A stretch of DNA of 64,000 nt, from NCBI GenBank assembly GCA_964187785.1, contig OZ076409.1, forward strand, positions 5,892,001 to 5,956,000. Reading direction: 5' to 3'. Below, one piece after another: positions 10,057 to 64,000 of the stretch. Below the pieces are notes generated by a model. It searched no databases and was not told the DNA's origin. It saw only the letters and a program-made list of their open reading frames with translations. The position numbers and the translations under genes are program-made. Within the stretch, counting starts at the first letter, position 1. Each line of letters begins with the position of its first letter. The DNA is from Amphiscolops sp. MND2022 (taxonomy: Eukaryota).

Positions 10057-10920
10057 CAGGGTGGGGAAAAAACTGTTTTTTTTCGATAAAAAACAAACAA
10101 ACATGTTTTTTTCAAAAAATACAGTGTTTTTTATGTTTTTTATGTTTTTTATTTTTTTTCTCATTTCTACAATGAATCTCGTAAAAAACAACGCGTAAAT
10201 GCAAAAATTTAATTGCATAGGAAGGCAGTTAATCAACATCAATCCTTATTGTTCAACTGTCTGTAGAGAAAGGCCAGTTTTCCTGCCTTCTCAACTCCCA
10301 AATGGGATCTCAACTTTCCATAGTTCATGCCCAATGTTGAAAATTGCCGCTCCAGTCCTCCTGATGACGACACTGATGATACAATGGAAATCGCGCAAGA
10401 AATCAAGTTTGGATCAAAGCCAAGTTTTCCACCGGATTTCCACCATGTTGATGATGATACATCGGCAAACGATCCCTCGAAACGGGTGTTACTGCCATTT
10501 TCCGACGTTTCTCCAGAATTTCCACATATTCCTCTGGTGTGTTAAGCCCTATAGATTGCCAAATTTCATAAGCCTCTCCCAAGCAACAGTCATTTCTTTG
10601 CAACTTGTCGAGAGAAGCACCGATTGGTTTTAAAAAATCTATCGCATCGTTTGCTGAACGTTTCAGTTGTATTTCTTCCATATAGCGGTAAATTGCGTCG
10701 TGTCTGCGGAGTCCAGAACTGTTGATGATCTCTGCGATAGTAGACCAATGGACAACGAAGTATTCAAAACTCTCGATAGCAGAGTTCCAGCGAGTATCAC
10801 ATGGCAAACTCGGTCGTGGCATGTTATGTTTCTTCAATTCGGCCGAAGCCGCATGGGTGTTACGCAAGTATTTAAGTACAGAAACCACTTTGCTGCTACA
10901 TGACTTGAACTCGGTAACGT
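10057..10920 (-). mobile_element. hAT transposon remnant (internally deleted transposase)
   Basis: ORF 10403-10888 contains LPCDTRWNS. The minus strand at 10240-10365 reads SSGGLERQFSTLGMNYGKLRSHLGVEKAGKLAFLYRQLN (hAT dimerisation domain). CAGGGT terminus at 10057. Confidence 0.85.
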
Positions 10921-10959
10921 AATAACTTGCTCCAACGTAAAAAAACTTGTAAAAAACTA

Positions 10960-11347
10960 TAAAAAACTCAATATCAGACGAAACATGAGAATTTTGAACA
11001 GTGTCACAGTGCCGAAAAATGTGGAAGGGATTTGGGATTTTTTAACATCCATTCTGTTGCAGAATATCAAAAAATTGAAGGGGCCCTTTGGAGGCATTGA
11101 AAAACTTCGTATAAAATCTCACTAAACAGAAATACAGGGCAGTCTCATAGTGCCGAAAAAAGTGGAAAGGGTACCCTTCTGCTTTGAATGGTTTTGCATT
11201 TCATGTTAGAGGCTTTGGATGCGTTCAAAATGAAGTACTAAGTAAAAGTGCACAGTGTACAAAAAGTAGACCGATCGCGTTGAACTGACGGAAAAAAACT
11301 AATCACTGTAAGAGTCGTGCATATTCTTTGAAAACGCCGACTAAAAA
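10960..11347 (-). mobile_element. Helentron/DINE-like family A variant (partial)
   Basis: Highly similar to 42390-42755 and ends AAAACGCCGACTAAAAA. Confidence 0.6.
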
Positions 11348-21295: not shown

Positions 21296-22889
21296 ATTGG
21301 TTTGGTACGGGACTCGAACGCAAGAGCTTCTGATTCACAAAGCCTGAAAATCAGCCTTAACCGCTGAGCCAAAAGGTGAGAATAACCTATCTGACAAGTT
21401 AAAGAATTGAACTTATAGAAATGTGTCAGTTCGCTGGGCTTTTAAAAAAGCCACCACTATAGTCGGCTTTTTCTAACGAAAAGCGACTTCTGAAAAATCA
21501 ATTCTGGTTAAACAGCTTTGACCATTGCAAGTTCCACCAATTGATCTCATATTCGTCTTTTAAAAAACCTCCCAGCCATACAAACTCAAAATCAAAATAA
21601 TTTCTACTACTAGTAGTTGAAGAAAAAACGCTGAAGGTTCAAAAAAAGTTTTGTGCCGATCATCATCAGAACGCCAATATCGATTACTTCAAAAATGAAA
21701 AAAAATCTACTTTCTCTAAAATCAATCAAGATGTGTCTTGCCAACTCAGACTGCCCGTCTAGACATTTGACTCTGTTTTACCAATTACAGACAGATGTCA
21801 CAAATACAAATGACGATGGCCAAGAGAAATTAGTTTAGAAACCAGAAAATCCAATTTTGAACCTTTTGTCGCTAACTTCTCAACAAAACCGATGACCAAC
21901 ATTGTATAAGTAGGTGTAAAATTTCTCCAAACCTAAAATTTATTTTTCCTTGAAAGGCATATCGTCAAAAATTCAAAGAGAGCTTTGAAGAAAATGTGAT
22001 GAGGAAATAAAGATACGTGATCAAACCGCATTAAACAGAAATACAAACCTGATTGTTATTGAGATTTGAAAATGGCGGGAAGTAAAAACTAAAACATCTC
22101 AAGACTGGCATAATTGGGCCTTCTAAATTTTCGTACGACGCAAATTAGATTCAATCTAGTTTTCAGTAATTTTTTGTATTATTCTGACGAACAAACGCGG
22201 CGAAAACGAGAAAAAGAAGGTAAATAATGGGAGTGAAGAAAACACTTAATAGACAGCTGCGATTGGGAAATTTGTAGAATGATTTGAAAATTGGTGAAAC
22301 TGCGGATGAATAATTGAGACTACGACTGGCGAGCGACCAGCGAAGCATTGCCAGAGTATCATCCAGAGAAAAGTATCTGGATCAGAGAACAGTACAAAGT
22401 GAGTGTGACGTTTTTGTTGATTGTCCAACAGCAGCTACTTATCCATAATTCACTTCCCGACTTTTCCTTCTGCCTCCGCTGCTGAAATCCAGTTTATATG
22501 CCACTTATCCAGAGAATCCCAGCTAATGTATGCCAAAAACTGAGCGATAGTTTGTTGAAAATTCGTCTGTAAGCTCAATTCGGAACAAGCTGAGTAGACC
22601 GAATCAATAATTAATCTCGAGAAGCAATCAGTGATTCAGGAAAAACTGCAAAGTAGGTATGCGACAATGCTTTTCATGGGAATATGTATTGAGAATAAAG
22701 AATTTTAGGAAAGTATTATGTATCAGCTAACAGCACTGTACTTCGCGATTTTTAAAAAAATCAAAAATACAAGCTTTCAAGTTCAAGTTACCGTTGTTTA
22801 ATGGTTTAATGGGCTGTTTGGTATGAAAACTGAGCTAACTACTGCACCTTTCAATTAAAAATAAGGCGAGATAATGCGCCAACAAATAA

Positions 22890-24300
22890 ACACCTACTAG
22901 CAGAAAACACCAAACTACTGAGTCCACATCAATTTGGTTTCAGAGCAAACTTTTCCACTGCGGACGCTCTCCTTTATGCCACAGAGAAAATTCGGTTTGA
23001 TATTGATAACAAAAACGTTGTTGCGGCAGCCTTCTTAGATCTCTCAAAAGCATTTGATTCGATCTCCCACGAAATCCTTTTACAAAAACTTCACAACCTA
23101 AATTTTAGCGAAAATTCTATTGCGATGATTCGGAGTTTCTTAAAACGACGGTTACAGAAAGTCGTTCTCGAAACAACATCTTCTGACTGGATTGAATTAT
23201 ACCAAGGTGTTCCACAGGGCACCATCTTAGGACCCCTTTTGTTTAATATATACGTGAATAGTATGCGATACAGTGTTAGTAAGCCATGCGAACTAGTACA
23301 GTATGCTGACGATACTTTTATATTTGTGAGTGGCAAGAAAATTGAAGATGCGATTAATCTGTTAGAAAAAAACGCAAAATGCTTAGTTGATTTTTTCCAT
23401 AGACATCGTCTTAACCTCAACGACAAAAAAACTGAATTTATCGTTTTCTGCCGAAAATCCACGAACGGTTTGACGAAAAAACTCAAATTGAAAATAAAGG
23501 ATCACCTCATTGAGCACAGAACTATTGTCAAATATCTTGGAGTTTATTTGGACCAAAACCTCACATATGAACCAGAAGTGAAACACCTGCTGAAAAAAAT
23601 GGCTTGTGGTATTAAAACTCTTTACTGTGTCAGAGAATTACTACCCGAAAAAATATGCTTATCACTACTAAACGCTCTGGTCATCAGTCACCTACACTAT
23701 CCAGCACTGTTACTGAACGGAATTTCACAAAATCTAATAACCACGCTCGAAAATCAATTAAGCTGGGGCATTAAAGCTTGCTGTAACAGAAACAAATACG
23801 AATCTTCAAGTGACCTAAAACTCAAACACGAAATTTTCCCTGTCAGATTACTCTTTGACTACAGAGCAAGTACATACTTCTGGAAACTTCAGAAAAATTT
23901 AGTTCCAGCTTTCAATGGGTTGAATAAAATATCCACTGACAAAATCAAATTTCATGACCGAACAGACTCCCTAATTTTTGATGCAAATGCCACAACCAGT
24001 TTTTTACAGAACTGCTTTATGAAAAGAGCAGTTGCCCTGTGGAACAACGTGCCGAAGTCAATATCAAAAAACAAATACTCTTACGAGACTATAAAAACAA
24101 AATTGAAACATTTCTACAACTCTCAAATCAAAAAAGAAGTAGAACAACCTGAGCATAGAATGAAATGTTGGAAAGATTACCGTTTTTAATATCACGTTTA
24201 CACTTTTAAATAATTATCTTTGTTATCTCGTGTTATTTCGTATTATTTTTGTACACTACTGAGCTTTTACACTACTGTTTTTTTTAAAATGATTGAATGT
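22890..24300 (+). mobile_element. 5'-truncated CR1/L2-group LINE (RT and C-terminus intact)
   Basis: Open frame from about 22890 to 24189 with QFGFR, FLDLSKAFD, GVPQGTILGP, YADD and KYLG motifs. Confidence 0.92.
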
Positions 24301-50548: not shown

Positions 50549-51348
50549 AGCCGGGGTGGTCATAAGTCACAAGGTTTTCAGTCATCTTTTATGATCGAGC
50601 GACGACTGCATACCTTCCTTGAGGAAGAAAGTATCTTCGAAGAAGAACGAGAAGTGTAACGTCAAGCTAGCAGCTACATTTTAGAACTGGGATAATGCTC
50701 AGGATGCTTTAACAAGAGACCGGTGTCCTATAACAACCTAAACACCAGCACTTCATCACAAAAGGTCTCAGTAGGGACTTTTCCAAGACGCCGTGGAGAC
50801 TCCTCATATTAGAGCTCCGTGGCGACGTGCCGGCACACTCAAAGTCCGGACACATCCCACAAGCACGTAAAAACGTATCCTAAAGAGTTCCTGCGGTCCT
50901 ACATGCCTCCAAGGTCCGAAAACGGGGTTCTAGTCTGAAAGCATTCTATTGGGAAAATAACCTTCAAAATACCAGCACAAGGATCTAGCAGATCCTGCAT
51001 TGCCCTAAATCTGCAAATGAACAATAATAACAGCATAATCAATCAAAATCGACATTTCCAGCGTTCTCTCATTGATTCTACAGTTTTCCAGTTCTTCTTA
51101 GAATATGGGATATTTGGATCCCGGGCCATTTCGTCGTAAAGAACTTGTAGTTTCCGAGTGAGATGGCACAATTCCGAGTCTCAGTATGTGTCTCTCAGTT
51201 AGTATGTCGTCTTCTTGTCTTTTTCGTCTTGGGAGGGTCTTTCGTTGCGTTCTCTGTTGTTCTTTTTTGATTTCAACGACCTGCTAGGTCGGCCATTTTG
51301 ATTCGCACTTTTTTGGTCCTTGATCGAATTTTTGGTGTCGACTGGTGG
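50549..51348. repeat. Copy 1 of an ~800-bp direct repeat (LTR-like from 50655, right end truncated)
   Basis: Nearly identical to 51756-52555, with only a handful of differences seen. Confidence 0.93.
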
Positions 51349-51610
51349 GGTTCCGGACGTTTCGGCACAAGACGTTTCGGCAACAAGATGGCGGAAGACG
51401 TTTCGGCAACTTTTTGTTGCCGAAACGTCTTTGGTGCCGAAACGTCTTCACAGCAGGTGAAAGACGTTTCGGCAACAAATTTTCAGTACTTTCCCCTTCT
51501 AATGTGGGGGCATATTCGGTGTATGCACGCTCGCCCTCACCGTCGCAAAGACCAGCTCCCACTACGATCGCTTCGCGATCCCCGTTTCCGCTAGGTCTTT
51601 GCTCCTGTTC

Positions 51611-51684
51611 GACCTCGCTTAGCAAGATGGGAATATAAGCGGCCCCTTGGGGCCGCTTATATTCCCATCTTGCTAAGCGAGGTC
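51611..51684. repeat. Perfect 74-bp palindrome (36-bp arms, TT loop)
   Basis: GACCTCGCTTAGCAAGATGGGAATATAAGCGGCCCC-TT-reverse complement. Confidence 0.97.
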
Positions 51685-51860
51685 AAATCATGTGTTGATT
51701 TCATGAGATGTCATCACTGAATCTGGTCGATAATACGTTTCATCATGTGCCCCTAGCCGGGGTGGTCATAAGTCACAAGGTTTTCAGTCATCTTTTATGA
51801 TCGAGCGACGACTGCATACCTTCCTTGAGGAAGAAAGTATCTTCGAAGAAGAACGAGAAG

Positions 51861-52563
51861 TGTAACGTCAAGCTAGCAGCTACATTCTAGAACTGGGATA
51901 ATGCTCAGGATGCTTTAACAAGAGACCGGTGTCCTATAACAACCTAAACACCAGCACTTCATCACAAAAGGTCTCAGTAGGGACTTTTCCAAGACGCCGT
52001 GGAGACTCCTCATATTAGAGCTCCGTGGCGACGTGCCAGCACACTCAAAGTCCGGACACATCCCACAAGCACGTAAAAACGTATCCTAAAGAGTTCCTGC
52101 GGTCCTACATGCCTCCAAGGTCCGAAAACGGGGTTCTAGTCTGAAAGCATTCTATTGGGAAAATACCCTTCAAAATACCAGCACAAGGATCTAGCAGATC
52201 CTGCATTGCCCTAAATCTGCAAATGAACAATAATAACAGCATAATCAATCAAAATCGACATTTCCAGCGTTCTCTCATTGATTCTACAGTTTTCCAGTTC
52301 TTCTTAGAATATGGGATATTTGGATCCCGGGCCATTTCGTCGTAAAGAACTTGTAGTTTCCGAGTGAGATGGCACAATTCCGAGTCTCAGTATGTGTCTC
52401 TCAGTTAGTATGTCGTCTTCTTGTCTTTTTCGTCTTGGGAGGGTCTTTCGTTGCGTTCTCTGTTGTTCTTTTTTGATTTCAACGACCTGCTAGGTCGGCC
52501 ATTTTGATTCGCACTTTTTTTGGTCCTTGATCGAATTTTTGGTGTCGACTGGTGGACGTTACA
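51861..52563. mobile_element. LTR (703 bp), TGTAACGTC…GACGTTACA
   Basis: TG…CA ends with 9-bp terminal inverted repeats. Purine tracts abut both ends. Confidence 0.75.
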
Positions 52564-52726: not shown

Positions 52727-53419
52727 GGTGACACGAAACGGGTCGAAATAATCCGGTCGAATTGCAAGGGTGAAACTGTGATCGAACGAAATTGATCGAA
52801 GTAAAATGATCGAAGAAAATGGTCGAAAGTTTGCAAAAAACGGACCTATACCGAATAGAAAAATAGGAAAAGCGTCGAACAACTAGAAAGTGGTCAGAAT
52901 TGCTCAAAAAATGTCAAAATGTTCAGAAATGCGATTTTTTGCAGAATGGACGAACTTTAACGCGGTTTTTTTTTAGTACAAAACGTGCCTCGGATATGTC
53001 CCCATTTCCTCTAGTGCCCCGCGGCCCCTTGGGGCCGCTTATATTCCCATCTTGCTAAGCGAGGTCGAACAGGAGCAAAGACCTAGCGGGAACGGAGATC
53101 GCGAAGCGATCGTAGTGGGAGCTGGTCTTTGCGACGGTGAGGGCGAGCGTGCATACATCGCATATGCCCCACATTATATAAACTAAAAGTCTCTGCCATT
53201 TGATGTGTTCACGACCGCGGTCACCCATAACCAAACCTGAAATTAGATTAAATAAGATTGTTGGTTAATTTTTTCGACTAAATTCTATCTTGAAAAGCAG
53301 TTCGACCTTAATCGTTCGATCAAAAAATGCTACATATTCAATTTCGACCCAATTATTTTTCGACCAGTTTCGACCTCAGTTTTTTCGACCAAACTTTTTC
53401 GACCTGGTTATACGTCGCC
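52727..53419. mobile_element. Foldback/TIR-type element with GGTCGAAA subterminal repeats
   Basis: GGTCGAA repeats at the left, TTCGACC repeats at the right, imperfect terminal IR. Confidence 0.5.
53011..53175 (-). mobile_element. Short Helitron-like element (3' hairpin plus CTAG), with an inverted copy at 51500-51657
   Basis: The minus strand ends GCGGCCCCAAGGGGCCGC-GGGGCA-CTAG. Confidence 0.55.
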
Positions 53420-53537
53420 AATAAAATGCAGTTTTGCTAAAAATTCATTCGTTTCTACTACTACTACTAAAAGACTGAATTGATTCTAGTCAACACAAAA
53501 GAAACACTTGATGATACCAGTATGTACAGATTTTTTT

Positions 53538-56368
53538 TTAACAACAGCTACATTTCAGGAACATTTTACAGCCACTATCTTCATATTTAGTTTTGTAGTG
53601 ATTCCAGTAAATTCTCTTTAGATCGGATTCAAATGCGGCAGGGTGGTTTGGCAATTTAATGTTGTATTCTTGTTGTACAAAATTGCTAAGTTTGATGATT
53701 CGATTGAAGAAAAATTCCCGTGTACACTTTAAACGTGTGTAGTCAGACATGAAAATATTTTTGGTGTTACTTCTGAGCTCATAATTATTGTTGTATTGAT
53801 TTGAACAGACATAATCCCATATGGTGAAGTCAAAAAGGCCCATAGTGAGCTTGTTGAACAGTAGCAGATCCTGCATTTGAAGATGTAAAAGAGATCGGTA
53901 AATGGTGATATTTGTCAAGAAGTTGATGAAATGAGCTCCTATAGTCAATCCACTTGAAACAGATCCGCTGCAGCCTTTGTATTTTTTTCAAGTCTCCTCT
54001 GTTCGGATGCCAAACACCTGAAGCATAAGCAAGTGCGGGTAAAATGTAGATGCGGTACAATTTAAATTTCATGTCAGGGTTTAGCATTTTAGGAAGATTC
54101 CGACGTAACATGGCTAGGCGTTTATAACAATTTGCTATTTTAATGTTTATGTGATCGGTCCATGTTAGATTTGGAGAGACCCAGACACCAAGATCACGAA
54201 TACTCTTTGTTGTAGGATAGATATCATTTTCTCCCATGTGTAGGACAAGGTTATCACATTGAATCTTTGATTTACTGAAGTGTAATAATTTCGTCTTCTG
54301 AAAGTTAAAGTCGAGTTTGTTTTCTTCACTCCACTTCATTAGTGATAACAAATCGTTCTGAAGATCAATCAGAGATGAACTTGCTAGTTTGAGGTCGTCA
54401 GCGAATAGAAATGGAACACACTCACAATTCTCGGGCAGGTCATTTATAAACGCAATGAAGAAAAGCGGGCCGACCACTGAGCCTTGGGGCACACCACTTG
54501 TAATAGGACACTCTTCTGATTGACAGTTTTCAATTTTAACTTGTTGCACTCGGTTTTGCAAATATGAAGCTATTAGTTTGAGTAGAGATCCACCCAGACC
54601 CAGAGATCGTAGTTTTTTCAGTAGTATAGAGTGAGGGACTCGATCAAATGCTTTAGAATAATCCAAATAGATTGCAAAGGCTTTTTCTTTGGAATCGATC
54701 CACTCAAAGATTTTATCAAAGAACGACAGTAACTGGATGACACATGATCGGGATTTTCGAAAACCAAATTGATGGGAGGATAGTTTGTCCTGTAGATGCT
54801 TGGAAATGCTCCTGAAAAGAATTCTTTCAAATGCGATTGAAAGTTTGCTCAAAGAAGCAATTGGACGGTAGTTGGCTATCTCATTTTTCAATCCCTCTTT
54901 GAATATAGGTGTAATAATGGTTTTTTTTCCAGGATGTTGGGTACACTCCAGTTTCTACGATAACCTTTAATAGGTTGTAGAAATGTATTGAGAGACTGTT
55001 TGAACACTTTCGTAAAATTTGACCATGAATATCATCAGGGCCAATGCCATCAGTTGATAATTCTAGAGCCTCTTTTGCGATTTCGGTAGATAGTTTTACA
55101 TCATTCAGTACATTATCAGTAAAATCGGTGAAGGTATCGTCAAAAGCATTGAATACTGATCCAAAATACTGATTGAAGGCGTTTGCAATTTTGGAACTTC
55201 CAGTAATTTTTTTCTTTTTGGGATCAATCATTGTCTTCGGAATGTCGCAAATTTTGAGTTTTCTAATCAGTTTGTAACAGTCATTTACGTCACCATTTAC
55301 GGCACAAAACTTGTCGAGGAATACATTTGTGTCCAACTCAATAGAATTTTCAAGTTCTTTACAGATAGTATTGTATTTGATATAATTTTTCAAGTTGAGG
55401 CCATTTAGTTGCTTTAATTCTGTTTGGAGGCAGTTGAAGAGATGAATACTGTAAGAGCTCAAGTAATCCGGCAACATCTTTCGCTTTTGCCGTTTGCTAA
55501 CTAAGAACTGTTTGAGAATGTTTTGAAATGAAATCAGCCAGTCCGCAATGAAGTCGACAGAATTTTGGTCTAGTTCGAACGAGAATAGTGACTGAGCTAG
55601 TGTTAGGTCAATCGAATTTAAGTCGGTTGCTGCGAGACTGTATTGTTTGAGGTCAGTTTGTGTGTACATTGTTTCAGAGTTTTTAGGGATACCCACAGAT
55701 ATGCTGAAATGATCAGAAAAAGTTGGATGTTTTTCAATATCAAGAACTTCAGGCTCGTCATAGTTTGTAAATACCAGGTCAAGGACATTACCATCTTTGT
55801 GGGTTGGTTCCTTTACAAGCTGGGTGAAATTTTTAGCAGTAAGGAATTTTTCGGTTTCACAGAAATATTCTGTACTGATCGCTGGGAACTGTGCCCAATC
55901 CTCGTTTGGTAAGTTGAAATCGCCCATAATTAATACTTTATCAATGGAAGCGTTACTGAGAACATTATAGGCCGAGGATAAGCAATTTGAGATTACATCA
56001 TCAGGAACACGATACTCACTAGGGTTTGGAGGATTGTATAAAACAATAATTCCATAGGTATCAATTGATATACCACAACAAAATGTATTGTCCAAGCATT
56101 CTATTTTTGATGCAACCAGTTCTTTTTTTGCCATAATAGTCACACCTCCATGCTGATTGGTTTCACGCACGGCTTTTGCTATGACTGAGTAGGCAGCTGT
56201 GAGAAAAGTATTGTCTGAAGAAGATTCATCCCACCAGGTTTCAGTAAGGCAGAGAATATCAGGTAATCTTGATTGGAGAATACACGATAAGTGAAGTCTT
56301 TTTTCTAGGGATAAGATACTGCGGCAGTTTAAAAGAAAGATGCGATAGACATTTTCGTAATTTTCTAG
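53538..56368 (-). pseudogene. LINE ORF2p (APE endonuclease plus RT) with two frameshifts (~54925 and ~53890)
   Basis: LNCRS, LCLTETW, GDFNLP, LDLVF and SDH (APE). NYRPI, QFGFR, DYSKAFD, GVPQGS and FADD (RT). C-terminal CSCC. Confidence 0.92.
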
Positions 56369-57220
56369 TCAGTTCACCTCTACCAGTTCATCGTCTTTGT
56401 AGAGTCTCAATTTTTTTATTTTCAAACGGCTACGATCTATGCCACTCCTGATCAATTCGTAACGTTTGGCTAACAGTTGTTTTTCCAGTAAAAGGTCCTT
56501 TGGGGACAGTTCAGGGGTGATCAAAACCCTTTTGTTCAGGAAATATTTTTTCTCGATGGCCTTTGCGATGACTTTGCGAGCATCCCATACAGATCCAAAT
56601 GTTACAAGTAGGTTCCGAGTTCTATTTTTATCAAATTTCCCAAGTCGTTGAGTTTTAATAACATTTCCGGAGCAATTTAGATCATCAAGAACATTTTCGA
56701 CTTCGGACTTATCATGCAGTTGTCTATCTATGAAAAACTTGGAATCCATTTCCTCAATTCCGAATATTCTTATTTTGTAATGATAATTTTTGTCCTCAGT
56801 TATGATCGTTTCAGGTACATGCCGATCTCGTGTTTTAGGTTCTTTCGTAGATATAGGAATTTTGTTCGGCAACTTTTCTTCAATGACGTTTTCGACGATT
56901 GTTTTGATATCTTTTCTAAGTTCATCTAGTTTAGCATTTTCAGTTGAGTCATCAAAGGCTGATTTTTTGCTAACACACGAATCGCAAAAATAGGAGAAAT
57001 TTTCAGACGAGGATAAGTAAACGAATACTTCCTTCGGTTTTTTCAGACACTGAGAGTGAAGCCAGTGAGAACATTTTTCACATTGAATCCAGTCCCTCGT
57101 TTGTTGTGATCCATGACATACAGAACAGAGTCCATGATCCACAGCACATGTTCCACCCAGTTGAATTGTCCCATCACTGTTGGAAGAGGAGACCAGTGCA
57201 CTTCTTGTGAGAACCATCAT
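56369..57220 (-). CDS. LINE ORF1p with PHD finger
   Basis: CSVC…WIQCEKCSHWLHSQC…YFCDSC, then a coiled region, IRIFGIEE, RLGK…R.LLVTF and ITPELS. Confidence 0.9.
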   Translation of the reverse strand: MMVLTRSALVSSSNSDGTIQLGGTCAVDHGLCSVCHGSQQTRDWIQCEKCSHWLHSQCLKKPKEVFVYLSSSENFSYFCDSCVSKKSAFDDSTENAKLDELRKDIKTIVENVIEEKLPNKIPISTKEPKTRDRHVPETIITEDKNYHYKIRIFGIEEMDSKFFIDRQLHDKSEVENVLDDLNCSGNVIKTQRLGKFDKNRTRNLLVTFGSVWDARKVIAKAIEKKYFLNKRVLITPELSPKDLLLEKQLLAKRYELIRSGIDRSRLKIKKLRLYKDDELVEVN

Positions 57221-57401
57221 CAAGTTTTCATATAACCGGAAACTATTTAATAAGTTTATCACAACAATTAGGCTGTTCGTTGTGACAATTAGTTTCAAGC
57301 TAGTTTAAAACTTCTTTTGGGGGAGGAAGCACTCTCACGTCTCTTACCAGCAAAGTTAGGAATATTTTAATGCAAGACTTTAATTGCACTTCTTTGTTAA
57401 T

Positions 57402-57404
57402 GGG

Positions 57405-57440
<36 letters not shown>

Positions 57441-57442
57441 CA
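57402..57442. repeat. (GGCA)n microsatellite
   Basis: Read directly from the sequence. Confidence 0.95.
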
Positions 57443-57630
57443 CCAAGCTGGGACGTTACCTACTAAGTAATTGCATCAATAAGACTGCATTCAAAATTTA
57501 ATAACTAAAATAGCGCATGGTACATGGTATTTTATTAATTGCACTGAGTGGGGTTGAAGTTGTACTTGGTGAGTTTGGGTTTGATTGGTTCAGTTCCATG
57601 CTAGGACTGTTCACTGTTGGCGTCTTTTAT

Positions 57631-60600
57631 TCAATCAGTTTGTTCTTGTGGCGCTTCGTTTAATGTTTCTGGTAGCATATCCATTGACAGCAGTTCTTTG
57701 GGGTTCACGCTGGGCAATTCATTGAGTTCTAATTCTATATCAGCTACCTCCGACTGGGATATAGATACTGGTATGTTTTCAGGACGGTTTGGTGGCATCG
57801 TTACGTCATTGTCTGGAACAATTATATTGTCTTCTGACATCTGATTGGCTTGATAAGTATCATTGGTGGATATATCCATGTTCGCTGCTGTGATAACTTG
57901 TGGGGTATCTTCTGGAATCATGGTAGATATTACTGATGTTGTGCTGCCACCTGCAGAGTTTTCCTGTCCCGCTGCCTGTCTTTCTGCAGAGGAGCCCACT
58001 GGGCATTGCTCTGGCAGCTGATTGGCGAGGTCTTGGCGTCCATATCTCTTGAATGTGTTTTTGTAGGTTTCTACTGCAGTTAGATAGTCTGTGCACACTG
58101 AGCTGTTTTCCTCTTGTTGCTTAGCTATCACTTCATAAAGATTTCCATTGCCAATTTTGGGTTGCTTGGGGCTTCTGTGTTGATGGGCAAAGGTTTTCGT
58201 TTCGGTTCTTTGGCGATTTTAGGTATGGTTGCATTTAGCATTTGGTAATTGCGATAGATGGTCTGGTCTGCTTTTGGGGGATTAGGGGACCCTACTGGGT
58301 CTACAGGGTGGAGTTCTAATGACATTGGTATTGCGCACCGCGCTCTGGCTCGGATCAGAGTTAAGAAATTGTGCTCGATTTGCTTCTTGTCTTTGATAAT
58401 GGTGTACGTCATTAGGGGTCCAAAGTTGGCAAAGTCGCGTACTAGCGTCTGAAATCCAGGTGGTCTGGCGTCGTCCTGAGGGTTTACAAAGTGCAGTATG
58501 GATAGTGTGGGTGAGCTAGCAGCTACTCTGAGTGGTTGTGTAGGGTACCTGAGAGCCATCATGGAAGCAAATGTGGCCAGACAATCGGGGCAATCACTGG
58601 GATTAAATCTTCAGTTTCCACTAGCATTAGGCTGGTAACTTGCGAGGAGAAGAGGAAACCTGGCAGGTTTTTGTCGTTGTTTTGCTGGTTCGGTGGGTCA
58701 GGAGGGTCTATGGTGATCATGATGAGACGTTTATCCACGCTGAATAGATCCAGGCCAGCATTGATTCGATGTTTTCGGCTAGTTGAGCATTGAGCTTCAG
58801 AGCGCCCGCGGAATCCAGCGTTTTCAGAATTGCGTTGATCCAGCCTCGTTGGTTTCTTGCAAATATTAAGAAGCTAAGCAGGCAAAAGTTGGCTTTGCTC
58901 AGAACTAATTTCTGTACCAGGTGCGTTGGGCCTTTATAGAACAAGCTCAGGCCAGCGGCCATCAGGTAGGCGAGAAATTCACTGATCTTGGCCCGTTGCA
59001 TGGCTTCCACATACAACTTCGCTTGTTGCTCATCTAAGTTGTTCTCACGCTGTACTATTTTGGGTACCCAGAATGGTGAGATATTATACAGGAATATCGG
59101 GAATGGGAGTCCATGACGTTCGGCCACTTCGGCCAGGGTTTCCTGTAGTTCTAGGTGCCATGATTGGTATGAGTGTCGTGGGTTGGTTCGGTTTTCCTGT
59201 GCTGTTTTCTGGGCTAATATTGATAGAAGCACTAATGTTGGAGAGACCATGTTTGGTTTTGAGTCAATTGCTTGTGTCGCTACTGGGAAGACAGTCACTT
59301 CAGTGCGAGTTTGTCTGATCTTCTCTGTCTTCTTGGAGAGAGCTACCAGCTCTTTATGGAATTTCGCGTTGTGCGTCGTCTCGTCCAGAGTTGACTCGTC
59401 TCTTTTTTTTTCGAACCATATGTTGTCAATCATGTTCGCTCTCTCGTGTTCGTTTGGGTCTCTGTTACGGCGCATTCCATTATCGTCAAAGATGCGGTGT
59501 GCCATTTGCATCCCAAAATCGAAGGCGGTGGCATCATCGGCTGACAATTGCGATTTTCCTTGGTATCCAGTATAGCTTGTAGAGCCTTTGATACTTCAGC
59601 CAAGAGTGCAGAGTATGAATTCTCACATGGGCGCCAGGTCATGGCACTGACCCTTAGGTTTTGGGCTACAATGTAGAAATGAAGGTTCTGGGCGTGGGCG
59701 GCTTCAGATAGTAGATACAACAATTGTTGGAGTGGTAGTGGTAGATATATATATCCTGGGGGTGACACGAAGATTACGCCTACTGTGGGCTTTTTTCTCT
59801 GTACTTTCCCAATAACATTCCTCATGGTTTTAATGTATGCCACTACTTCGCCAGTCAATACTGCTTCCGTTAGCCTTCGATTTCCTCCTTCAAAGTGTTT
59901 AACTGTTCCTCGAAGAGCCAAGTGACCAATTACATTGCTGTAGATCAATATTGGGGGAAATGGGATTGTTTCAGAGTGATTTGCGGTGGGACCGAAGACC
60001 TTGCAGGTCACCTCGGCCATTTCCTCTAACGATGAGCACGGCAGATTCATCACTGGAACATCCATTAGAGTGTTGTTCATATTGGCCGTTGCCTTCATTG
60101 TCGAGTCCATGAATAAGGCGATCTTTGTCTTTTGAAGCACCTCTTTGCCCATGGGTTCTGCTTCCTCTACCCCTTCCCCGCTGAAAGTTGAAGGGAGCAT
60201 GAGATGGGGGTCGTTGTCGTGAGGACGTTGTATACATGTGGAGGCAGAAGCTGAAGTGGATGCTAGCATCGGTGGTGGCATGGCTGGTAGTAGGCACGTG
60301 AATTGTTGTGTTGTGACAAGTGACATTGGTGGTTTGTTTCCAATGTTGACGGGAGCTGAGGAGGCGTGTAGGGGTGCCATGGGGGAAGGCCTAGCAGGCT
60401 CACTGTAACGCAAGCTTGATCGGTTGTCGTCAAAGTGGTGAGTCAGGTCATGGCCCTGCCATGTTCCCTTGTGGAGTTCGGCTGTGCGGTGGTAGGAGCC
60501 AATTCCAATAGAAATGGAGAGCGTGAAATCAGGGTGTGTTTCTAATGTCTGCATTTGGGCGGTTAGCATGGCTATCCCGGTGGCTAGTGTTGGTGAGACG

Positions 60601-60782
60601 TCAGATTGAAGGTTTGCCTGGGTCAGACCAGGCTGGTCGGTGTAGGTTTGGGGCTCTGCGACAGGCAGCGTGGACACGGAAGATACTGGCCCAAGTGGAC
60701 ATGGTAATTGGTTCCTGGATGATTGGTCCATTGGCCAAAATGGTAGCACCTTTATTGGAATTTGATCGTTTACAAACTGCAA
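57631..60782 (-). pseudogene. Extra retroelement ORF (~1000 aa, broken by frameshifts) with an SGNH-like domain
   Basis: Four consecutive same-strand ORFs (60782-59430, 59547-58717, 58562-58128, 58131-57631) with uniform composition. Confidence 0.65.
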
Positions 60783-61030
60783 ATGAGTGATAGCAATGCT
60801 GGTGGTGGCAGGTGCAAGCGCGTGAACAGGACTGAACTGAAAGAAACAACTAGCGTCAATTTTTGGCTAAAATGGTGTTACGTGAACTCAAACAAGGTAT
60901 AGTTAAAAATGTAGCAGGATTGACTAAACAGTCGGCGTAAAAAAATTTGAACGGTTGTTCAATTTACATGAACGCTTAAAAGAGGAATAGTCCATCCAAT
61001 GACTATTGCTAATTGCTACAAGGACTCAAG

Positions 61031-64000
61031 CTAATTTGTGCTTTGTCCGGGTAGGGTACATTTTGACGTATGCAATTGATACATCACCCTGTCGTGGAGC
61101 ACTATGTCGACTTTTGAATCAATGAAGTGATCTCGCAACATTGAATACCAAGTTGGTAGTATGTTGATTGACCTTTCAGGATCATAGATGGGAAGGTGAA
61201 TTCGGGTGACTTGGTCTTGCGTGAGCTTTTGCACTAGATCTAGCAGGCACAGATGTAGTACATCATGCAATATGGGATGTTTGTTGGAGGCTCTTGTAAA
61301 TAGTAGAAACATGCTGTTGTTCCATGGCGCGTCGGGTGACTTAGCGAGGTGTATGGCCTTCCCTACGGCAGGTCGTAGTTTGAAAATCTTCTCTTGACCA
61401 TATTCCCTGATGACATAACGTGCCATTGCTGACTAGGAGAGCAGGTCAGCCGGACAGCATATTACCACAGTACCGAGTGCTTGCAGTATATTAGTCTCAG
61501 CGTAGGTTATCCAGGGTAAGTAATTGGACTTGACTTTCGGGAGCGTTGTTAACAATTTCCCTGTGAGTGTGCTTTGATTGTCTTGATTTGGTGCGAGATG
61601 ATCTAGAATGGCTTTGCGGTCTTGCCATATTGTTCTGCGTAAGGGACGGTCTCCCAAGTTTGTGCAGGACTAATTGTGAACTACGGAGAGTGCTTCAAGC
61701 ACGGTCGTTGGATTCTCGAATGCATACATGTATTTGTCTATTAAACGTATTTTGGCTTGGCGACAGAAGATAATAGCTAGTAGCTGTGACCAATGTTGAC
61801 TAAGGAATGATCCGCGGTAGATGTCTGCTAGATGGAAACAGTGTGTCCTCGAACTCCACTAGGGTACGTAAGTTTTCTAGGAAATTTAGCAGAATTCCTG
61901 GAGTCACTGGTGATACTTCATCCAAGGAGGTGACTAGTAGCCAGCAGCCAGTTGATGGGTGATACACATCTCCCGGGGGGGGGGAGGTCACGCCCAATTG
62001 TTGCTATAGCTTTTGCGCGGTGATACAGCGTACCATTGCTATGTTCGTGTCTTCTGGTCCAATTTCTCCGAAAACCATCGATGGTGGGAGTGGAGGAATT
62101 ATAGCGGCTAAGGTAATTTCAAGTCCACTCTTATCATGCCGCGTCCACTCTTTGAATCGATAGGCAGGACAGTCTGAAGGTGATGTCTCGTGCACAGCCT
62201 TCAAAGTGGTTTCCAATGGTGGGATCACACCTGGTTCAATGCTCGAGTATGTCTTTTCTACTGTAATGAGAATATGGTGTACTTGTGGACCGTCCTGGTT
62301 TTCAGTCTGTATGGCCCAGATTGTACGTTGTTCATGGTCTTCAAAAGTATCCTCTTCAGCTAAAATGGGGGTGAGAGCGCCCACTCCCCGGGCCAATTGG
62401 TCGTCCGGTGGTTTTCGTTCGATTAGGTTGACTCAACTACAGTAGCGGGAACCACATGTTCCGCACCGGTATCGTGGTGCCCTGTTACGTCGTAGTTGGT
62501 AAGGTGGGGGTTGTGAAGGTGTTGGTGGTTGTGCTTCTCGCTCCTCTGGTGACCTACTTTCCGCAATGTCGGGTAGTGTCATAGCACGTTCTAAAGTTTG
62601 TGATTGAATTCTAGTTTCTGTTCTTCCTCTCGATCGAGTGTATGGTCTGTTTTGTTGTGTGAGTGCTCTGCTTGATGAAGTGGTGCTTCCTCTTCTACGA
62701 CCTAGAGGTCTACCTCTTGGTCTGCCCCTCCTGCTTGCAGTTCTCCCGGGTTTTGGTAATGCTTCAATGTTTCGGTCAGATTCTTGGATTTCTTCGTTGT
62801 ATTCTTCTTGGGGTTCAGCTTCCTGTGCAAGTTCTAGTCTTCCCGAGCTACCATTTTGAGAACTGTATGATGGAAAGTTACTCAAAGTGTCGGTAAGGGC
62901 TGGGTTCGACAGTAGTGGTGCCGAAGTTCCTGATGGTGAGGGTATTAGGCTCTGTGGTTGTTCGGGCAAGACTTCTTCCTGATCTGAGAACAATGGTTCC
63001 AGGTCGTCAATGTCAGGGAAAACCACTGGTTGCTGTGTTTCTGGAGAAGGTGGTGCTATTGGTTCTTGGTCAGATTCTGATTCGGATGGATATCCAAAAT
63101 GGCTAAATCGCCTGCGTGGGATTCCTTATTGCAAAGCGGATTGAGTGCGTGTTTGAATTGTGAGGGGTGGAACGGGTGCAGTTGGTACCATTTCGAATGA
63201 TGCCTCTGGCAGTTGTTCTGGAAGGAACGAGTCACACGATATGTCCGATGTAATTTCCTCATTGCTTTCTTCTGCGTATGGGTCTGCAATGATGGCGACG
63301 TTCTGGTCTGGTCCAAATGGTTGGTGTGTTGCCCAATCCCAGGATGCAGGCACATGCTCCTTCAATCGCTCAAAATGGACTTTTTTGGCCTGTATCCCAT
63401 ACGTATAGTCGTCCATCTTGTAGCACGTCTGTGACCTTTATGAGGCCCGCGCCAGGCGCGGAGAAGCTTGCGGGTACCGCCCTTGGGAATTATATGGCAG
63501 AAAACCCAAACGGCGTCGCCTACGGCGTGTGCTTTTGCTTTCAAGTGTCGATCAAACTTCTGTTTCTGTCGTACCTGCGCCTGGTGCGTGTTTCTGCGAA
63601 CAAGTTCGTGAATTTCCTGTTGTCTGGCGAGTAGGTGTTCTACAAATTCTTCCTTAGACTCGAATTCTCGTGCTGCAAACTCGGGATATATGAACGAGAG
63701 CGGAATGGATTTTTCCGCGCCATGTTGGAGCATGTACGGAGAGAACCCAGTTGTAGCATGCCTGGTTGAACTGTAGGCACCCAGGACTCCATCTATGTCC
63801 TCGTCCAAGTCGAGCATTCTGCGAGAAGTGTAGACTCGGAGCAGAGTGAGCAATGTTTTGTTTTGTCGTTCCACCAGGCCATTGCCTCTTGGGTGTGCTG
63901 GAGTCGATGTCACTTTAGTTTTTTGCGAGGCTTTCATCAGTTCCTGTGCAATTTCCGCGGTGAAGTTGGTGGCGTTGTCTGACTGCATCCTGGCGGGGGT
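61031..64000 (-). mobile_element. Decayed Gypsy/Ty3 pol: integrase plus long C-terminal extension with macro-like domains (continues beyond window)
   Basis: QSDNATNF…PAHPRGNGLVERQN…HATTGFSPY…W.GP..V…VHFERLK. The downstream ORFs are separated by single in-frame stops or frameshifts. Confidence 0.9.

Follow-up and report, generated by a model that had tools for sequence, protein, structure and literature searches.

A 64,000-nucleotide (nt) stretch of the genome of Amphiscolops sp. MND2022 (GCA_964187785.1, contig OZ076409.1, positions 5,892,001 to 5,956,000; hereafter the window) was found to carry, at 57220-53455 on the minus strand, a long interspersed nuclear element (LINE, a non-long terminal repeat retrotransposon) of the apurinic/apyrimidinic endonuclease (APE) type. 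Its two open reading frames (ORF1 and ORF2) share one frame and are separated by a single TGA followed by CTAG. On the basis of the conservation of this junction, ORF2 is proposed to be expressed by programmed type II (UGA-CUA) readthrough, which would yield the ORF1 protein (ORF1p) together with a minor ORF1-ORF2 fusion; a probability of about 0.75 is assigned to this reading. The hallmarks of a LINE are present, namely APE followed by reverse transcriptase (RT) in ORF2, an upstream ORF1 bearing an RRM module, a simple repeat at the 3' end and no long terminal repeats (LTRs). The features of the element are given in Table 1.

Table 1. Features of the LINE, in window coordinates
Feature	Position	Strand	Basis or remark
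(GCCT)n microsatellite, probable 5' untranslated region	57403..57441	-	5' end of element not fixed
ORF1, 283 codons + TGA; N-terminal PHD finger, then L1-ORF1p-like RRM/C-terminal domain (CTD)	56369..57220	-	start ATG 57220/57217
PHD finger, ORF1 residues 31-81	56975..57127	-	Pfam PF00628, E 1e-7
Sole TGA separating ORF1 from ORF2, candidate readthrough codon	56369..56371	-	sequence; 5/5 contigs
CTAG, 3' context of the stop; CTA common to distant element L001, G not	56365..56368	-	sequence, contigs, L001
Out-of-frame ATG, 7-codon frame, cannot start ORF2	56350..56352	-	frame analysis
ORF2 5' part in ORF1 frame, comprising APE endonuclease (at about 56350-55700) plus linker	54881..56368	-	PF03372, E 7e-12; PF14529, E 8e-10
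First in-frame ATG, within APE domain (GVTIMAKK)	56132..56134	-	alignment to L1 endonuclease
A-run, ORF2 frame change	54921..54928	-	decay or assembly error
ORF2 reverse transcriptase frame	53830..54954	-	PF00078, E 5e-31
ORF2 last part, third frame (second break near 53890), ends TAA	53538..53987	-	open frames
Short 3' untranslated region with five terminal TAG repeats	53455..53537	-	sequence

In Pfam, the window ORF1 protein alone matched only the PHD finger, while a profile built from 40 relatives (A3) matched L1 ORF1p (2yko, E 2.9e-6), the basis for the RRM module, and also PHD fingers. Similarly, a PDB search with the single APE sequence gave no match, but an APE profile (A5) matched the L1 endonuclease (1vyb, E 1.5e-8). 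An Atlas search returned eukaryotic clusters together with a weak Transposase_22 lead. As the PHD finger lies upstream of a Transposase_22-like domain, ORF1 is assigned from its sequence to type IIC of Metcalfe and Casane, defined by PHD plus Transposase_22 (PMC4120745). The element probably belongs to the CR1/L2 lineage, judged from this ORF1 type and not from an RT tree with reference elements. Copies are dispersed, as many near-identical ORF1 proteins occur on different contigs, and no second copy of the element was found within the 64-kb window. The sequencing runs with relatives are either marine or from a single organism given by a code. The flanks match over 7-8 bases only, and none of these matches is a convincing target-site duplication for an element whose 5' end is not fixed.

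The end of ORF1 reads GTG AAC TGA (56371-56369), and the same frame continues CTA GAA AAT and remains open for 495 codons to 54881. The initial annotation had described ORF1 and ORF2 as lying in one frame, split by a single UGA-CUAG and with no AUG for ORF2, and had placed the motifs YRIFLLNCRS and LCLTETW in the post-stop frame, ahead of the first in-frame ATG (56134). All of this was reproduced when coordinates and frames were re-derived. That ATG lies 237 nt beyond the stop, with 78 codons between. When the APE profile is laid on the L1 endonuclease, LNCRS falls over LNING (N14) and CLTET over CIQET (E43), two residues needed for catalysis in L1. The ATG itself sits in GVTIMAKK, whose L1 counterpart is GVAILVSD near residue 74, and lies downstream of the equivalents of both N14 and E43. 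The +1-frame ATGs at 56391 and 56352 open only 3 and 7 codons, respectively, and an overlapping or adjacent stop and AUG of the SART1 type, in the ORF2 frame, is not present at the junction. ORF2 is a coding frame without a usable start of its own.

Conservation of the stop was assessed in the family of the window element (family A) at both protein and DNA level. Of 22 family ORF1 proteins reaching the last motif (P0077, from another family, being excluded), 21 end at the stop residue of the window and the remaining one continues in another frame; these proteins come from many ENA contigs, possibly of one assembly. At the DNA level, contigs from four runs in three studies, with a similarity to the window that is mostly 90-99%, were aligned on 56250-56470, leaving out runs X2 (same size as X1) and X5 in the alignment across the stop. 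TGA-CTAG was unchanged in all five contigs covering the stop, three of which have at least 31 letters on each side. The nearest change, common to all five, is silent and lies in the codon preceding the stop, and no insertion or deletion was seen. One low-depth contig has a stop codon between the junction and the first in-frame ATG. The initial annotation had allowed that the TGA might be a private nonsense mutation, or that the ATG at 56352 might fall in the ORF2 frame in other copies. On these sequences the stop is the state of the family and no private mutation, and the ATG stays out of the ORF2 frame since the covering contigs carry no indel. As a separate observation, one contig (run X6, record 7) departs from the element at 56367, two bases past the stop, into unrelated letters and is possibly a 5'-truncated copy.

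A second, distant element with the same junction was obtained from metagenome contigs. These were scanned with an ORF1 motif, blind to the junction (49 of 64 parts scanned), and a single locus, L001, was confirmed among 593 pattern matches. Its PHD-type ORF1 ends CAA CTG TGA, followed by CTA TCC in an APE frame that is open to the contig end. Identity to the window element is 27% in ORF1 and 34% in APE, and L001 falls outside the 34-row group of the window in a quick tree with many open forks, in which family A is represented by P0008 only (Shimodaira-Hasegawa-like approximate likelihood ratio test, SH-aLRT, 93-94). The first in-frame ATG of L001 is 198 nt past the stop, and the stretch from 75 nt ahead of the stop to 150 nt beyond it is free of ATG in every frame. 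On both strands of the window, CTA follows TGA at 38 of 2560 places and CTAG at 6 of 2560; by chance, a blind draw would therefore be unlikely to give a matching in-frame TGA-CTA. From the sequences compared, the TGA-CTA junction appears to be conserved beyond the family, in one case seen in DNA and several seen in proteins. Other searches confirmed no further locus: none of 102 pattern matches for the window APE in metagenome contigs, none of 199 in viral contigs and 396 in genome contigs for alignment A4, and, in viral contigs, neither the one match for the L001 APE nor any of 23 for A5.

The protein cases come from a HMMER search with an ORF1 C-terminal profile, of which the best 150 of 1549 matches were used. 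Of the stored proteins, 158 reach the end of ORF1; 104 of these (family A included) stop within three residues of the stop column of the window, and seven continue into APE: P0040, P0043, P0044 and P0067 (family B), P0095, P0102 and P0163. These seven represent four lineages with a mutual identity of 35-43%. At the stop column, W is found in six of them and S in one, with L as the next residue in six of seven, and the distance from the stop to the NC motif varies by lineage (12, 10 and 7 residues) with the frame kept. P0040 is identical at 271 of 272 positions to P0010, which ends at the stop. With TGA translated as W, the frameshifted tail of P0040 and the main frame of the family agree at 35 of 35 positions; with the standard code they agree at 33 of 35. 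As the full fit is obtained only with TGA as W, its contig was called with TGA=Trp, and the W at its junction most likely stands for TGA. The possibility that the W residues are real TGG codons of single-ORF families was rejected for P0040 by this frame-compatibility test. P0040 has P in place of the post-stop L; a single transition in a CTN codon would give P, which suggests C at +4 and T at +5 for family B. Longer, fused relatives of the window ORF1 were absent among 2919 candidates, which is weak evidence.

Several further observations were made in this collection. It includes eukaryotic contigs called with TGA=Trp (P0040, P0039 and P0010). Such calls expose in-frame TGA junctions as fusions and so offer a cheap screen for readthrough LINEs, but also set a trap for claims of a single ORF. 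Six relatives (P0009, P0010, P0047, P0077, P0110 and P0153) have no PHD finger and carry an N-terminal YP(S/T)IxEL-type motif instead; they keep the ORF1 C-terminal domain and, where seen, the stop column, so that the head is swapped and the junction kept. A side group (P0184, P0192, P0195, P0199, P0200, P0203, P0207, P0208, P0209 and P0171; SH-aLRT 100) has an ORF1 extending 20-100 Ser/Thr-rich residues beyond the usual stop column and may use a different route to ORF2. P0185 apparently continues from ORF1 into sequence resembling APE; it is degraded, has no domain match and was not counted.

UGA-CUA is the type II readthrough signal, which needs no RNA structure and, in mammalian cells, reaches an efficiency of about 1.5% or higher. 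The initial annotation had read UGA-CUAG as such a signal. Its stop holds as a family state and the in-frame TGA-CTA recurs in L001, whereas the G of CUAG is not conserved; by comparison of these sequences the conserved core is UGA-CUA and not CUAG. A conserved UGA-CUA with a free seventh base agrees with a report on four UGA-CUAG genes, in which bases one to six of the seven are universally conserved and UGA-CUA by itself gives 1.5% readthrough (PMC4132726). A type II readthrough class that includes UGA-CUA has also been described (PMC3159437). The LINE shows several features of this class: a single in-frame UGA followed by CUA, a stop, context and frame that are conserved, and a downstream coding frame with no start. 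Under programmed readthrough, most ribosomes would end at the UGA, where the stop is observed, and release abundant ORF1p. A few percent would insert an amino acid there and continue through APE and RT, giving in an intact copy a scarce fusion of approximately 1,230 residues that carries both endonuclease and reverse transcriptase. Speculatively, the whole fusion could join the ORF1p particle via its ORF1 part and tether the enzyme to its own RNA; alternatively, it could be cut after synthesis. It appears slightly more probable than its opposite that a broad, deep-branching group of animal LINEs with a PHD-bearing ORF1 makes its endonuclease-RT only as an ORF1-ORF2 fusion by UGA-CUA readthrough, in the manner of gag-pol.

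A number of points weigh against readthrough. The DNA-level context of the stop comes from two lineages only, the window family and L001, and its seventh base differs between them (G in the window, U in the CUAU of L001), with C implied in family B because L-Q follow the stop. In six of the seven fused proteins, TGA and TGG, and CTA and other Leu codons, are indistinguishable. Fused proteins are moreover in frame by construction, out-of-frame relatives being invisible, and they show that the layout recurs and not how frequently. ORF2 of the window copy is broken twice, at the A-run (54928-54921) and near 53890, and because of these frame changes the copy as assembled is unable to make a whole ORF2. 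From the stop to the first ATG, silent changes are only weakly in excess: they make up 5 of 11 among the differences listed, in a listing that leaves out 33 differences, and 5 of 7 among those occurring in at least two runs, against an expected fraction of 0.23-0.35. RNA run X5 gave two contigs, neither of which crosses the junction, and is uninformative either way. A stimulatory structure 3' of the stop is frequent in type II readthrough, though not required. Folding compared with shuffles, in windows up to 256 nt and thus short of kilobase-range pairing, gave no 3' RNA structure in either the window element or L001 (z between -0.7 and +1.7 in one set of 12 windows, and z +1.1 in a separate comparison), and in alphaviruses such structure boosts readthrough 3- to 14-fold (PMC3159437). 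Finally, mammalian L1 makes ORF2p as a separate, AUG-independent product (PMC11485995), and for rat L1 an ORF1-ORF2 fusion is argued against, none being reported (PMC2241872).

The L1 case points to the main alternative, that a separate ORF2p arises at or just after the UGA, by AUG-independent termination and reinitiation or by stop-and-carry-on, which is considered unlikely here. Slow termination at UGA-CUA could favour restart as well, the stop lies exactly at the end of the ORF1 domain, with the first APE strand following a few residues later, which suits two proteins, and the functions of ORF1 have been argued to need a separate product (PMC3708506). As is proposed for the present LINE, L1 and SART1 have one bicistronic RNA and make little ORF2p (PMC5972666, PMC3708506, PMC2241872). 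Their arrangements differ, however: L1 has a spacer of approximately 60 nt with two stops (PMC2241872) and silkworm SART1 an overlapping UAAUG with a downstream structure (PMC5972666, PMC3708506), whereas here there is neither spacer nor AUG. Restart also leaves unexplained why UGA and CUA are kept in elements only 27-34% identical, and for stop-and-carry-on, inspection of the window and L001 translations found no 2A motif (GD(V/I)ExNPGP; PMC3708506) after the stop at the front of ORF2. Readthrough with a fusion is thus preferred over reinitiation on the grounds of conservation, and not on a translation-level basis. A start of ORF2 further downstream, at an AUG or a near-cognate codon reached by leaky scanning or internal entry, is very unlikely. 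L001 does have an in-frame CTG six codons past the stop, and in the window codon 10 is ATC, but such codons are not common to the lineages. Likewise, the Met ahead of the NC motif in the family-B copy P0039 is Ile in P0043, P0044 and P0067. A start at ATG 56134 would lose the N14 and E43 equivalents, and a downstream start requires neither the shared frame nor CUA.

A separate ORF2 message produced by splicing or by spliced-leader trans-splicing is still less probable. TGAC resembles a branch point and CTAG an acceptor, and the window has CTGAC and then TAG, but L001 (CTAT) has no AG directly after the stop. The first post-stop AGs are in phase 1 in the window and phase 2 in L001, so that a leader ending in AUG would be out of frame in both; no splice joints were seen in the contigs aligned, although this is weak evidence. 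The view that ORF1 and ORF2 form a single gene, which has TGG in active elements and was interrupted by a nonsense mutation, is largely refuted. Such a gene would fit the seven database proteins that cross the site, six with W, and single-ORF PHD elements do exist in CR1/L2 (PMC4120745). Against it stand the stop in 21 of 22 family ORF1 proteins and all five contigs, the TGA in the clean L001 contig, the origin of the P0040 W in a TGA=W gene call, and the 104 of 158 relatives that end no more than three residues from the stop column. Equally remote is some other recoding of the UGA, whether A-to-I editing to Trp, selenocysteine or a host code with UGA=Trp, for which only the single in-frame UGA itself speaks. 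In-frame Trp around the junction is TGG at all 7 places in the window and all 11 in L001, so there is no general reassignment of UGA. No Rfam match, selenocysteine insertion sequences (SECIS) included, was obtained in 53300-57700, no duplex-forming structure was found 3' of the stop, and neither editing, selenocysteine nor a changed code predicts CUA.

Readthrough between ORF1 and ORF2 has been suggested, in one sentence, for the Group 3 non-LTR retrotransposons of Paramecium tetraurelia (PMC5405496), the sole statement of this kind for LINEs that was found. These form a ciliate-specific clade with a zinc-finger ORF1, and the suggestion comes with no stop context or test in the text consulted, whereas the element described here is from an animal, its ORF1 is of the PHD/L1 type and its UGA-CUA is conserved. 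The same UGA-CUA is used at the alphavirus nsP3-nsP4 junction and in OPRK1, OPRL1, AQP4 and MAPK10 (PMC3159437, PMC4132726). As proposed for the LINE, type II systems make an upstream or structural protein in excess over a polymerase extension. They differ in that readthrough has been tested experimentally there, while in the LINE it is predicted from sequence, and in the 3' stem-loop that alphaviruses add. No mention of retrotransposons was found in the consulted parts of PMC3159437 and PMC4132726. Elements of CR1/L2 with a type IIC ORF1 (L2 subgroup 6 and CR1 subgroup 5; PMC4120745) are alike in the PHD finger, the L1-like RRM/CTD, the APE-RT ORF2 and a 3' tandem repeat; in the accessible text of that source the term "stop codon" is absent and translation of ORF2 is not treated. 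In the 2A (StopGo) LINEs of CR1, L2 and related clades, ORF2 likewise opens with a recoding signal of viral type (PMC3708506). However, 2A yields two proteins from one open frame, whereas suppression of the stop here would join two frames. No paper on UGA-CUA readthrough in animal LINEs was found in a search that mostly did not extend to subscription papers and Repbase reports. The LINE type and the readthrough signal are each known, and their combination is new.

How the second gene of LINEs is translated is a long-standing open question. Reinitiation has been worked out for L1 and SART1, and 2A peptides form a third route. If correct, readthrough would add a fourth, with a fused product and consequently a different particle assembly and preference for the element's own RNA. 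It would set the ratio of ORF1p to enzyme, and the enzyme would be incorporated, on its own RNA, into the ORF1p particle. Transposition would then be governed by the termination efficiency of the host, and conditions or drugs that change readthrough are predicted to alter element activity. In practice, such elements would be classed as dead by repeat libraries and gene callers, or would have the start of their ORF2 placed within the endonuclease.

Other features of the window include a region immediately upstream of the LINE (57600-64000, minus strand) with fragments resembling an LTR retrotransposon, where the G+C content is 47-49% compared with approximately 37% across most of the window. 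This region contains a frame at 63362-64000 without a Pfam match, which we take from its motifs to be integrase-like, and long open frames at 59430-60866 and 58717-59595, also without Pfam matches. A second, unrelated LINE piece with an unbroken RT frame of 451 codons lies at 22834-24189 on the plus strand (PF00078, E 4e-33); it is cut at its 5' side and therefore offers no ORF1 junction for comparison. At 10403-11041 on the minus strand, a 212-codon frame without a Pfam match carries a PCDTRWNS motif, presumably of the kind seen in hAT transposases. An 801-base direct repeat (50549-51348 and 51755-52555, 99.5% identity) flanks a core of approximately 400 bases, part of which (51500-51656) recurs inverted at 53021-53176. 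The arrangement may be a duplication of recent date, a small LTR-like element or an artefact of assembly.

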